Assembly (NCBI GenBank): GCA_965223265.1
Contig: OZ244999.1
Location: 4,576,001 to 4,640,000, forward strand
DNA length: 64,000 nt
Direction: 5' to 3'
From: Planctomycetota bacterium
Lineage (GTDB): Bacteria; Planctomycetota; UBA8108; SXIK01
A model generated the notes under the pieces. It had not been told where the DNA came from and searched no databases. It worked only from the letters and a program-made list of their open reading frames with translations. The position numbers were made by a program, and so were the translations under genes. Numbering within the stretch: the first letter of the stretch is position 1; each line of letters starts with the position of its first letter. This document shows, in pieces, positions 29,707 to 37,415 of the stretch.

Positions 29707-29781
29707 TGGAGCGGGTGAAGGGGGTCGAACCCTCGACATTCAGCTTGGGAAGCTGACGCTCTACCACTGAGCTACACCCGC
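29707..29781 (-). tRNA. tRNA-Gly (CCC), integration target
   Basis: GCGGGTG acceptor, TCAGC-TTCCCAA-GCTGA anticodon arm, GTTCGAC, CCA end. Confidence 0.97.
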
Positions 29782-29798
29782 ACATGTTTCGTGTTAGG

Positions 29799-29828
29799 AG
29801 TCTACCATTCGCATCCTGGGCTCCGCAA
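29799..29828 (-). promoter_or_regulatory. Island-borne promoter facing the intact tRNA-Gly
   Basis: Minus strand TTGCGG-N18-TAGACT with extended -10 TGG. Confidence 0.6.
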
Positions 29829-29930
29829 GAGGCTGCGCGGAAAGGGGTTTCGGTGCCGAAGGGGGCGGAATCGGCTCAGTTCTGTACGGGTTGCCGGGTC
29901 ATCGTTCCGATGGTTTTCTTGAGGAGACGA

Positions 29931-29950
29931 AACGACCCGCTAACGACCCG
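29931..29950 (+). repeat. Putative integrase arm-type sites, left: AACGACCCG x2, 11-bp period
   Basis: 29931-29939 and 29942-29950; same pair at 37227-37245. Confidence 0.65.
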
Positions 29951-29965
29951 TTCCGAAAAACCGAT

Positions 29966-31207
29966 ATGCCAGCGCACGAACACGTTCCATTCGAGCACCT
30001 TGTCCGGCGCAAGCTGTACAAAGAGAAGAACGGTCGCTGGTACTGTCGCGTGTTCGATACACGGACCAAGAGACTGCACAAGGTGTGCACCCGGCAGACC
30101 GTCAAGCGGCTCGCAGACAAGGCGGTCGATGACTGGATCAAGGCGAAGCTGCGTGAAGACTCGGACGGGATCTCGCACTTCCGAAGATTCGACGAGGCTT
30201 ACGAAGAGTACCTGCGCACTCGCCAGATCAGTGCGTCCACTCGAATCGAGTACAAATCCTGCTATCGCCAGTTCCTGCCGCATTTCGGCGAAAAGTACGT
30301 TCACGAAATCACGTTTGCGGACGTGGAGCACTTCCTCAAGGAATCAGAACTCAAAAGACGTTCTCGCCGGACCCGGCAGAAACACCTCGCCTATCTTCGT
30401 GCGTTCTTCCGCTGGGCGATCCATCGCCAACTGGCGCGTAAGAACCCTACAGACGGTCAGAGCGTCCCTAATGCCACGCGGCGAGTCGGGGTCGCCCTCA
30501 CACGCGAGGAAGCCGAACGACTTGTCAGAGCGTGCGAAAGGAGGTTCAAGAAGGATCTCCAGAACGGAAGGGGTAAATGGGAGCAGGAGTACGTCCCGCC
30601 CCGATACCTGCTTCTCGCGGTCCTAATCTCCCTCCACACAGGACTCCGACGCGGAAACGTGCTCGGGCTCAAGTGGAAGCACGTCGATCTTGACCGACGA
30701 AGCATTCGTCTACCGGCGGCGATGCTGAAGACCGACGTGGACCACGAGATTCCGCTCCACGACGAGCTGTACCACCTGTTCTACGGGCGTGAAGGTGACC
30801 CGGACGATCCGGTCGTGGGAAAGAAGCTGAAGAGCATCACCAAGAGTTTCAAAGCGGCGGTCAAGCGAGCGGGGGTACGGGACCTTCGGTGGCATGACCT
30901 TCGCCACACGTTCTCGACGTGGATCGCCGGTGTGACTTCGCTGGCGGTCCAGCAGAGGCTCTTGAGCCATTCACCCGGCAAGAACATGTCGCTGAGGTAC
31001 ACACACGTCCCGTTCGAGAAACTGAAGAAAGCCATCGATGCGCTGCCGAATCTTCATCGCGAGAACTACACGTTTCTTCCCGGCAGTCGAACGTACACGG
31101 GAGATGCGACGTTCTCCGATCCGGTGGAAGCCGAGCCTGGCGAGATGTACCGTGAGGACTACGAAGAAGTTCACTACGGAATCAGAGACCACGATCCGAA
31201 CGGATAG
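29966..31207 (+). CDS. Tyrosine recombinase/integrase
   Basis: HTGLRRG (R), LKTD (K), HDLRH (HxxR), LSHS (H), LRYTH (Y); N-terminal GRWYCRV arm-binding-like segment. Confidence 0.95.
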   Translation: MPAHEHVPFEHLVRRKLYKEKNGRWYCRVFDTRTKRLHKVCTRQTVKRLADKAVDDWIKAKLREDSDGISHFRRFDEAYEEYLRTRQISASTRIEYKSCYRQFLPHFGEKYVHEITFADVEHFLKESELKRRSRRTRQKHLAYLRAFFRWAIHRQLARKNPTDGQSVPNATRRVGVALTREEAERLVRACERRFKKDLQNGRGKWEQEYVPPRYLLLAVLISLHTGLRRGNVLGLKWKHVDLDRRSIRLPAAMLKTDVDHEIPLHDELYHLFYGREGDPDDPVVGKKLKSITKSFKAAVKRAGVRDLRWHDLRHTFSTWIAGVTSLAVQQRLLSHSPGKNMSLRYTHVPFEKLKKAIDALPNLHRENYTFLPGSRTYTGDATFSDPVEAEPGEMYREDYEEVHYGIRDHDPNG

Positions 31208-31344
31208 GTCGAGTAGTAGATGGACACACTCTTCCTCTTGGTTGCGTGTTCCCTTCTCGGCAAGCGCCGATCTCGCAATTCGTCCGAGAGATCGAGAACC
31301 GCCTTTTGCCTCTTGGTAATCTCCTTCTTCGTAATCTTTGTTGA

Positions 31345-35375: not shown

Positions 35376-35830
35376 GTCGCCAACGAACGCTTAATCGGGT
35401 CCCCCCTCGGAGAGGGGAAGGGCTACACATCTCTCCAGGGGAAAAACGGTGCCACGTGCTCGACGGGACGGGGAGTTCCCGGACTGGGGAGAGAGTTCTT
35501 ACATCAGAGCAGAGATCGAGGGCGAGGTCCGTCTCCAGAACCGCCTGAATCAATAGCGGTGCTTGATAACGACAAGCACTACCTCGAGCAACCACATGCT
35601 CGATCCTCGATTAATCGAGTTCTTCGGCGGCAATTGGCCAAAGCGGGCTCCGTAACAGTTTGCTGCCGACCCGGAGCACGGGTAGTGGCGCTTGATCGTT
35701 CTGATAAGAGACGACTTGTGTTCAGCGGTGTGACGTTGCTGGATTCGTAAAGATTTTTGCCGTTCCGTCGGTCGAAAACTCAAGAAGGGTGATAGAGAGG
35801 GCAGTCCCAAAAGTCTGTCGAGGGTGTGTC

Positions 35831-37153
35831 ATGACGATACTCAGTGACGTAACGGCGGCCAGTCAAGAGAGAAGAAGTGAAAGGGATCAAGAGGCACACG
35901 AGGGATTTCGAAACAATTTCGACCGCGACCGGGCCAGGATCGTGCACTCTTTTGCCTTTCGTCGGCTACAAGCAAAGACACAGGTCCTTGGGATCGGGGA
36001 GGGCGACTTTCACCGCACGCGCCTCACGCATTCGATGGAAGTAGCTAACATCGGGCGTGGAATCGTACACAAGATTCTCGATGACCCCAAAGCTCGTGAT
36101 ACGGCCAAGCTCGACGTTGACCTGATCGAGGCAATTGCGTTTGCCCACGATCTTGGACATCCACCGTTTGGGCATTCAGGCGAGATCGCGTTGAACTACG
36201 CGATGAGGGAGAGCGGAGGATTCGAAGGCAACGGTCAAACGCTTCGCATCCTCTCCACCTTGGAGCCACGAACACACGCGTACGGCCTGGATCTGACAAG
36301 ACGCACGCTGCTCGGTGTGCTCAAGTACCCAGCGAAGTACGGCTCTGTTCGTCGCCTTGAGCTGCCGAGAATCCCAGAGTCTGGCGCCAAGTTGATAGCG
36401 TCCGAGTGGAAACCTCCGAAATGCTACCTCGACACCGAAAAGGAGGTAGTTGAATGGTTGCTGGAACCAGCAGACGGCTCTGAGAGGGAACGCTTTTTTG
36501 ATTCCTCTGAACCAGGAAAGGAACAGCACGGAAAAAGTTCCAGAAAGTCCTTGGACTGCTCCATCATGGATCTTGCCGACGAGATTGCATACGGAACACA
36601 CGATTTGGAAGACTGCATCGAGCTGCGCATCGTCAAAGAGGACCAGTTTGCCTCTGAACTAAAAGATAAGCTGGATACCGCCTGGGCCAAGGAACACGAG
36701 CTAACGTCCATCGCCGAGAGGCTATTCTCCATGGAGAATTCGTCTTTACGTAAAGAGGCCGTCAGCTCTCTCGTCAGAGCGTTGGTGGCATCCACCACCC
36801 TGGTCAAGGACGATGCTGGAGGTTGTCCTCTCTTGTTCGACAAGGTCTCTCTTCACGAAGAAGCAAGGGTACTACTCGATGGTCTAATCGATCTGATCAA
36901 GAAGTACGTTCTAAGCGCGAGGCAAGTTCAAACGCTGGAGTACCGGGGACGTCAAATGTTGGTCGCGATCTTCGGCGCGATCCAATGCGAACCCGAAAAG
37001 CTCCTACCCGACACACACGTCAAGCGGCTGGAGAGTGATCCCAGCGAGCGCGTAATCTGCGACTACATTGCCGGAATGACGGACGGATTCGCGATGAGAA
37101 TGTACGAGCGTCTTTTCCTCCCAAGAGCTGGAAGCCTGTTCGAAAGGATATAG
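35831..37153 (+). CDS. dGTP triphosphohydrolase, probable anti-phage type
   Basis: RDRARIVHSFAFRRLQAKTQVLG, GDFHRTRLTHSMEV, AHDLGHPPFGHSGE, GFEGNGQT, DYIAGMTD; inside the island. Confidence 0.88.
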   Translation: MTILSDVTAASQERRSERDQEAHEGFRNNFDRDRARIVHSFAFRRLQAKTQVLGIGEGDFHRTRLTHSMEVANIGRGIVHKILDDPKARDTAKLDVDLIEAIAFAHDLGHPPFGHSGEIALNYAMRESGGFEGNGQTLRILSTLEPRTHAYGLDLTRRTLLGVLKYPAKYGSVRRLELPRIPESGAKLIASEWKPPKCYLDTEKEVVEWLLEPADGSERERFFDSSEPGKEQHGKSSRKSLDCSIMDLADEIAYGTHDLEDCIELRIVKEDQFASELKDKLDTAWAKEHELTSIAERLFSMENSSLRKEAVSSLVRALVASTTLVKDDAGGCPLLFDKVSLHEEARVLLDGLIDLIKKYVLSARQVQTLEYRGRQMLVAIFGAIQCEPEKLLPDTHVKRLESDPSERVICDYIAGMTDGFAMRMYERLFLPRAGSLFERI

Positions 37154-37226
37154 ATCGAAAGCTCTTCGCTCTTCGAGGTGTTGGAGATTCCGTTCCCTCG
37201 ATAGATTGTTTTGACCGCTGAGTCAG

Positions 37227-37245
37227 AACGACCCGGAAACGACCC
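37227..37245 (+). repeat. Putative integrase arm-type sites, right: AACGACCC(G) x2, 11-bp period
   Basis: 37227-37235 and 37238-37245. Confidence 0.65.
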
Positions 37246-37331
37246 TCATCGAAAACGGGACTCCCGACCGAAGTCGTAAGTCCCTTTCGTTTCCTGCTCA
37301 AGCCTCGCCTCAACCAACCTGGCGATTCAAG

Positions 37332-37371
37332 TTGGGAAGCTGACGCTCTACCACTGAGCTACACCCGCACA
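37332..37371 (-). pseudogene. Displaced 5' half of tRNA-Gly(CCC) (att site)
   Basis: Identical to tRNA from its 5' end through the anticodon loop plus 3 upstream bases, then diverges. Confidence 0.9.
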
Positions 37372-37386
37372 GTTGGTCTGCCGAGA

Positions 37387-37415
37387 ATCTTATCCCGGTC
37401 GGCACAGGGCAGCAA
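37387..37415 (-). promoter_or_regulatory. Probable native tRNA-Gly promoter, now facing the tRNA fragment
   Basis: Minus strand TTGCTG-N17-TAAGAT just upstream of the fragment. Confidence 0.6.

Follow-up and report, generated by a model that had tools for sequence, protein, structure and literature searches.

The stretch of DNA considered here, 64,000 nucleotides (nt) of contig OZ244999.1 (assembly GCA_965223265.1, positions 4,576,001 to 4,640,000; called the window below), comes from a bacterium of the phylum Planctomycetota. It very probably contains a 7.5-kb integrative island that entered the anticodon loop of the gene for tRNA-Gly(CCC) by site-specific insertion through a tyrosine integrase and that carries the 5' half of this gene. 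The island most likely also supplies the promoter of the rebuilt tRNA gene, a predicted TTGCGG-N18-TAGACT string at -47.

Anatomy of the island and its target

The borders of the island are marked by an exact direct repeat of 40 nt (29745-29784 and 37332-37371) that brackets 7,547 bp. The repeat runs from the anticodon loop to the 5' end of the tRNA and 3 nt beyond, as a preliminary description of this DNA had held. The loop, TTCCCAA, occupies the first 7 nt (29745-29751 in the numbering of the window), and the identity block stops exactly at its edge. A repeat finder reports a longer match, 54 nt at 91% identity, which extends 14 nt into the island at attR; beyond the loop, positions 37318-37331 agree with the tRNA at only 9 of 14 bases. 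The crossover site appears to be centred on the anticodon, with the crossover itself probably within the 7-nt loop.

Positions and strands of the features discussed in the text (window coordinates)
Feature	Position	Strand	Remarks
Intrinsic-terminator-like hairpin with T-run	29671..29701	-	Host side, directly past the tRNA 3' end
Intact tRNA-Gly(CCC)	29707..29781	-	ARAGORN; its 3' half, from the host, meets in the anticodon loop a 5' half of the same sequence as the displaced copy
attL identity block	29745..29784		Loop with tRNA positions 1-30, and 3 nt beyond the 5' end
Predicted island-borne promoter of the rebuilt tRNA	29799..29828	-	TTGCGG (29828-29823), N18, TGG-TAGACT (29807-29799); starts at -47; prediction
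Tandem AACGACCC-N3-AACGACCC, integrase-proximal arm	29931..29949	+	Putative arm-type Int sites; 17 nt before the integrase start codon
Tyrosine integrase, 413 amino acids (aa)	29966..31207	+	Divergent from the tRNA; 184 nt from tRNA 5' end to integrase ATG
Open reading frames (ORFs) without family match	31220..33511		Either strand; e.g. 31345-32082 (minus), 32221-32853 (minus)
Palindromic repeat like a miniature inverted-repeat transposable element (MITE), 171 bp	33541..33711		BLAST against the genome
Serine recombinase, N-terminal part, 244 aa	34641..35375	+	Resolvase domain and first half of Recombinase domain
Anti-phage dGTPase, island cargo	35789..37153	+	NF041026, PADLOC
Second tandem AACGACCC-N3-AACGACCC, far arm	37227..37245	+	Putative arm-type Int sites
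Strong hairpin, 28 nt	37257..37284		Between the 5' fragment and the dGTPase stop at 37153; folds on both strands
attR	37318..37371		Exact block 37332-37371 (displaced host 5' half with loop) and 14 nt of island DNA
Predicted original host promoter	37387..37415	-	TTGCTG (37415-37410), N17, TAAGAT (37392-37387); outside the island; starts at -47; now before the 5' fragment only; prediction

The genome is one contig of 9,179,496 bp with 60 tRNA genes, among which tRNA-Gly(CCC) is present as a single copy that scores 72.1 bits on the Rfam tRNA model. The 37-nt tRNA part of the repeat occurs at two places only in this genome when up to 3 mismatches are tolerated. Read in the orientation of the tRNA, the host promoter region comes first, then the 5' fragment (37368 to 37332), the 7,547 bp, the intact tRNA and the terminator-like hairpin, an order that confirms the earlier placement of the island upstream of the intact gene. 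The intact tRNA gene and its fragment thus lie in one replicon and point the same way, with the tyrosine integrase gene between them. The fragment is the 5' part of the gene (tRNA positions 1-37) and lies upstream of the intact copy, a configuration that the filter set out in the Islander paper (PMC4383910) admits for 5' fragments. The exact repeat and the intervening integrase support the view, already taken in the preliminary description, that an integrase-bearing island stands in the anticodon loop and duplicates the 5' half.

Because the island duplicates the 5' half, the rebuilt tRNA-Gly(CCC) has island DNA upstream and the host promoter is stranded on the 5' fragment. In the mechanism proposed here, attP of the island would carry the tRNA's 5' half (loop to position 1, and 3 nt more) rather than the usual 3' half, and the integrase would recombine it with the anticodon loop of the single-copy gene. 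After insertion the working gene would have the 3' half and terminator of the host, fused to a 5' half with island DNA upstream, and the host 5' half with its promoter would remain as a stump 7.6 kb away. The island promoter would then lie in the 184-nt divergent region common to the integrase gene (int) and the arm-type sites, and the cargo delivered would be an anti-phage dGTPase.

The strongest new evidence for the boundaries of the island is a pair of short motifs. The tandem AACGACCC-N3-AACGACCC has exactly two occurrences in the 9.18-Mb genome, with both strands searched, and one stands just inside each repeat. Position and repetition suggest that the AACGACCC pairs are arm-type integrase-binding sites. 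The closest relatives of the integrase have tandem repeats of their own, with an 11-nt period, at the equivalent place before the int start codon: of AGCGTCCC type in locus L013, a GCGTCCC pair in L103 and three copies of CAGATGTGGAC in L106. This suggests that arm sites may overlap the control region of int across the integrase clade. In L013, L103, L106 and L108 the tandem repeats lie 20-120 nt before each int start.

The integrase itself scores 66.7 bits on PF00589 (cut-off 27.1), covering model positions 3-170 of 172, and matches phrog_1 at 1.9e-59. LRRG, WHDLRHTF and LRYTH are present when its translation is read by eye; we take them to hold the R...K...HxxR...H/W...Y catalytic residues of a tyrosine recombinase.

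Promoter candidates and alternative explanations

Two sigma70-like promoter strings had been reported earlier, one outside the island and one inside it, and both were found where they had been placed, each starting at -47. How the organism itself uses such strings tells more than a plain consensus score. The pattern TTGNNN-N16-18-TANNNT occurs in 0.6% of 20,000 random 70-mers of the genome, and 9 of the 60 tRNA genes have it in front of them. In relatives it stands before 13 of the 17 tRNA-Gly(CCC) genes, at -40 to -61. The tRNA-Gly(CCC) promoter of G001, a genome of the same family, reads TTGCCG-N18-TACACT and likewise stands at -47. The island string equals the native promoter of relative G012 at 21 of 30 positions by hand count, with TTGCGGAGCCC in common, and the host-side string has CCGCTTGC.GCCC in common with G001. 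Both promoters thus resemble genuine tRNA-Gly(CCC) promoters. The upstream regions on the host side and on the island side are each about 50-55% identical to that of G001 (hand count), values that are not decisive for which promoter is ancestral. The ancestral promoter at the locus is shown by position relative to the repeats and arm motifs, not by similarity alone. Of the earlier proposal that the island holds a replacement promoter, the part that stands is the candidate, which fits the promoter type of the relatives' tRNA-Gly(CCC) genes; that it fires is a prediction.

It had also been proposed that the host promoter now points into the island, antisense to the dGTPase gene. The promoter is indeed stranded before the 5' fragment. 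The antisense part of the proposal is weakened, because a strong hairpin with a U-run lies between the fragment and the dGTPase gene. Past the hairpin (37257-37284), the plus strand reads UUUCGUUUCC and the minus strand GUUUUCG. With UUUCGUUUCC the hairpin is likely to form the terminator of the dGTPase gene; on the minus strand, transcripts from the host promoter may stop at it, about 100 nt before the dGTPase gene.

Several observations weigh against the proposed account. Neither promoter was reported by a stricter consensus scan (at least 9 of 12 matches), and plain consensus scores are weak, 7.5 for the host string and 8 for the island string, values reached by 25% and 10% of random 70-mers. 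The window also contains a tRNA-Gly(UCC) gene (10233-10306, ARAGORN). By the established wobble rules this tRNA can read GGG, so that a need for the rebuilt gene is no argument that it is expressed. No empty site was found, either at the tRNA-Gly(CCC) loci of relatives, which include no genome of the same genus, or in metagenome contigs; an exact search of the metagenome contigs for the 32-nt host-side junction gave 0 matches. Unitigs of four sequencing runs from one study (X1-X4; Logan, k=31), compared with 29400-37700, break at the 40-nt repeat and so cannot reveal attB or attP. No excisionase was recognised among the island ORFs in family-profile and PHROGs scans. Finally, a MITE of the host stands within the island, which points to a long stay and perhaps to a loss of mobility. 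That the promoter is active and that the island can still move are both points that we infer.

The flanks of the locus were also compared. The hydrolase on the right flank has no ortholog in 40 relatives, 4 of which have partial matches at 29-36% identity. In G001, no window ORF of at least 120 aa from 18-50 kb was found within 10 kb of tRNA-Gly(CCC). In G002 and G003, homologs of the window genes at 19709-22675 stand about 1.5 kb from tRNA-Gly(CCC), in the other orientation; the flanks are not syntenic.

The points about the promoter favour an alternative in which the island integrated as described and its predicted promoter does not drive the tRNA. The gene might be silent or weakly expressed, GGG being read by tRNA-Gly(UCC), or the tRNA might be processed from a longer island transcript. 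The promoter call is one of pattern only, unconfirmed by the consensus scan and with a score that one random 70-mer in ten attains. Against this, the candidate stands at -47, as do the stranded host promoter and the promoter of G001, its motif belongs to the pattern at 13 of 17 relatives' genes, and the tRNA is undamaged at 72.1 bits. The alternative seems unlikely, though not negligible.

A second alternative dispenses with site-specific integration: the block at 37332-37371 would be the stump of a decayed second tRNA-Gly(CCC) or a local duplication, and the integrase would merely lie nearby. Such an origin would be in keeping with the failure to observe an empty site or an excised form in relatives, in metagenome contigs or in unitigs that break at the repeat. 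It is nevertheless very improbable. The break falls exactly at the loop edge, 100% identity over 40 nt gives way to 9 matches in the next 14 nt, and arm-motif pairs unique in the genome stand just inside both repeats. Moreover, the geometry from int to the core equals that of relatives with proven two-ended islands, such as G001, in which fragment and tRNA-Arg are 16 kb apart.

That the arrangement is an artefact of assembly at the repeat is scarcely credible: nothing positive speaks for it beyond the inability of short-read unitigs to span a 40-nt repeat, the genome is a single 9.18-Mb contig, and unitigs of X1-X3 cover the island-specific side of each junction (from 29755 on, and as far as 37361). 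Depth is equal over island and flanks, about 10 in X1 and X2 and about 7 in X3 (X4 is patchy and uneven in depth), which is consistent with the assembly.

Polarity among the integrase relatives and known islands

Insertion of an island bearing the 5' half of tRNA-Gly(CCC), the account preferred here, can be set beside the habits of related integrases. The loci examined number 160, the best 80 of 507 in genome contigs and the best 80 of 526 in metagenome contigs, with 25-43% identity to the window integrase; neither the genome, metagenome and viral contigs nor a set of 400 genomes from the phylum yielded a relative above 43%. No tRNA lies within 500 nt of the integrase gene in 86 loci, many of them short. 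The int 3' end faces the tRNA 3' end in 65, it precedes the tRNA 5' end in 6, and the tRNA 3' end precedes the int start in 2. The layout of the window occurs in 1 of the 160 (L032), yet there with whole tRNA-Asp copies on either side. In this locus, from a Pseudomonadales metagenome-assembled genome (MAG), complete and identical tRNA-Asp genes (80 nt, 100%) at 9556-9632 and 16201-16277 flank the integrase relative. An attP that holds a whole tRNA gene, as in L032, could be a stage between one polarity and the other.

Among these loci a count was also made of direct-repeat fragments 20 nt or longer. In 25 of them the duplicated fragment is a 3' half that starts at or next to the first base of the loop, and in 23 of the 25 the integrase lies between fragment and tRNA. 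A 5'-half fragment was found in one locus (L065, an Omnitrophota MAG, tRNA-Ser), where the block ends at the last loop base; one further fragment is an internal piece. The loop is common to all these identity blocks, because 3' halves begin at or next to its first base and 5' halves end at its last. The preliminary description had raised the question whether homologs of the integrase also sit at 5'-half duplications; for the most part they show the opposite polarity (25 3' halves against one 5' half).

The seven closest loci (L013 at 43% identity, two copies in G001, one in G002 and three in G005) have no intact tRNA in their examined DNA. Half-tRNAs escape Rfam even at a permissive threshold, which misses the window's own fragment and reports none near the close homologs; BLAST with the 60 tRNAs of the genome detects them. 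By this means 6 of the 7 loci were seen to have a 3'-half tRNA fragment upstream of int, no more than about 300 nt from its start. The fragment is divergent from int, as in the window, in L013, L103, L106, L107 and L108, and co-directional in L105; no tRNA fragment was detected by this search near the int start in L104. A hairpin precedes the fragment on the host side in L013, L106 and L108. In G001 the intact tRNA-Arg(CCT) lies 16 kb from the fragment, beyond the integrase and on the same strand, which is the classical polarity. For contig C180 of G005, the matching intact tRNA-Asp was found on another contig. The window and its closest relatives have one geometry in common: host terminator, host 3' half, loop, tandem-repeat arm and int.

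A quick maximum-likelihood tree was built from 40 integrases (the seven closest loci, L137 and 31 others picked for known layout, with the remaining loci left out). The window integrase falls in a group of nine rows together with elements of classical polarity, at a Shimodaira-Hasegawa-like approximate likelihood ratio (SH-aLRT) support of 91, below the star threshold, and its nearest rows are L013 and L103. The polarity reversal would most simply be a derived state of this element. Since L065 lies in another part of the tree, the reversed state needs two changes on it.

A more far-reaching reading, improbable as a whole, may be built on these relationships. The element would be a recent polarity convert in an otherwise classical clade of Planctomycetota integrases, in which tRNA identity moved from the far arm of attP to the integrase-proximal arm, perhaps by way of an attP with a whole tRNA gene and its promoter, as in L032; this route is speculation. 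The captured tRNA-Gly promoter would now stand together with the int start and its arm sites in one divergent control region of 184 nt, where occupancy by the integrase could tune the supply of the GGG-specific tRNA, and the stranded host promoter might give rise to a short 5' tRNA-half RNA ending at the 37257-37284 hairpin.

Reversed polarity is reportedly described by Zhao & Williams (2002). Of the 3919 islands in Table 1 of the Islander paper (PMC4383910), 3760 have a 3' fragment and 159 a 5' fragment, and the share of 5' halves among the present relatives is close to that 159/3919. As in those 5'-fragment islands, an intact tRNA is accompanied by a co-oriented upstream 5' fragment, with a tyrosine integrase between them and an anticodon-centred site, and the DNA upstream of the rebuilt gene has to come from the element. 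There is no difference in kind; what differs is the setting, a Planctomycetota-type genome, tRNA-Gly(CCC) and a dGTPase as cargo. The island is thus another instance of a rare but catalogued class. The earlier interpretation holds for the 5'-half island and the promoter type, whereas the novelty was overstated, given the 159 of 3919 islands catalogued (PMC4383910). No current view is changed, because the 5'-fragment phenomenon is already documented.

A second point of comparison is archaeal. According to the account in one review (PMC8371274), bacterial recombinant tRNA genes retain their original promoter "with very few exceptions". The same account states that the pTN3-like integrases of archaea use the 5' half of a tRNA gene and that the integrase promoter then drives the rebuilt tRNA gene. 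The likeness to the pTN3-like integrases of the Thermococcales lies in attB, which there too is the 5' half of the gene. Unlike these "suicidal" integrases, which that review describes as split by integration, the integrase here is intact, separate from the tRNA and divergent from it, and the tRNA has a predicted sigma70-like promoter of its own.

The closest relatives of the integrase sit in classical anticodon-loop islands: those at tRNA-Arg(CCT) in G001, at tRNA-Asp/tRNA-Met in G005 and at tRNA-Thr in L013. All have host terminator, 3' half, loop, 150-300 nt with repeats of 11-nt period and a divergent int, and their integrases group with that of the window in the tree. In contrast to the present island, the arm next to their integrase bears no likeness to a tRNA, and the gene is restored at the far end, where in G001 the host gives the 5' half and the island the 3' half. 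Here it is the integrase-proximal arm that bears the 5' half and the predicted promoter, and the far arm retains 9 of 14 matches only. The island is a cleanly bounded case of a minority (about 4%) polarity of tRNA islands in a poorly studied phylum. Its added value lies in this comparison, in which the closest integrases have the same int-to-core geometry and the opposite polarity. The pairing with classical relatives could help explain how attP switches the tRNA half that it mimics, and how an element takes over the transcription of a host tRNA.

Pieces of tRNA-Gly(CCC) were also encountered in relatives. In G002, of the same family, the gene is split across two contigs exactly in the anticodon loop. 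Its 3' half stands on contig C212 (L137, 8188-8232) beside a distant integrase of 25% identity, and the matching 5' half with promoter stands at the very start of contig C146 (L136, 1-35), cut in the loop. An 8-mer identical to the first 8 bases of the tRNA lies in L137 on the island side, 29 nt before the loop. The G002 pieces agree with an island of classical polarity at this same loop, and the island may vary within that population. Two genomes of the same order hold further pieces: G016 a partial tRNA-Gly(CCC)-like 3' half (G016:C253:4100-4149), and G018 a 5' piece of 21 nt followed some 330 nt later by a 3' half (G018:C505:11813-11833 and 12166-12210). These may be further islands or small insertions at tRNA-Gly(CCC). 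A 5'-half match in G010, at a contig end and of 89% identity, was set aside as uninformative.

Island contents and other observations

The island has a GC content of 57.3%, against 60.8% for the genome. Its dGTPase scores 505.6 bits on NF041026 (cut-off 400) over the full length and 1.1e-140 on the dGTPase profile of PADLOC. By family membership it is thus like the anti-phage dGTPase defence genes, with a full-length match above the curated cut-off; a defence role would follow from the name of the family, membership in which is what was tested.

The serine recombinase covers only positions 3-53 of 102 of the Recombinase domain, and the ORF in the next frame has no match. The architecture of a full-length large serine recombinase, Resolvase, Recombinase and zinc-ribbon, is not present in the 244-aa ORF, and the gene is probably truncated. 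The unmatched ORFs have no match in Pfam, PADLOC, NCBIfam or PHROGs, and no usable match in the ESM Atlas. Of the 14 island ORFs, no more than three had a match among the PHROGs profiles, namely the integrase, serine recombinase and dGTPase, the last to a phrog of unknown function; no virion, packaging or lysis genes were found among the 14. The element is therefore regarded as a small defence island and not as a prophage.

The MITE-like repeat has arms of 71 nt that are 76% complementary. BLAST against the genome gives 486 matches, 357 of at least 120 nt and some 100% identical, and unitig depth at the repeat is about 400-fold that of the flanks. Since the repeat sits inside the island, the island has been colonised by a host repeat.

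Two groups of tRNA genes were noted elsewhere in the genome. At 8524-10795 of the window, tRNA-Thr(TGT), Tyr, Gly(TCC) and Thr(GGT) are followed by Trp, and the order Thr-Tyr-Gly-Thr is conserved in three of the relatives' loci examined (L129-L131). Outside the window, at 5388119-5389391 of the genome (C1), there is a tight array of about nine tRNA genes (Glu x2, Leu x2, Ser x2, Arg, Gln and Trp). It duplicates anticodons present elsewhere in the genome and may be a tRNA array of a mobile element.

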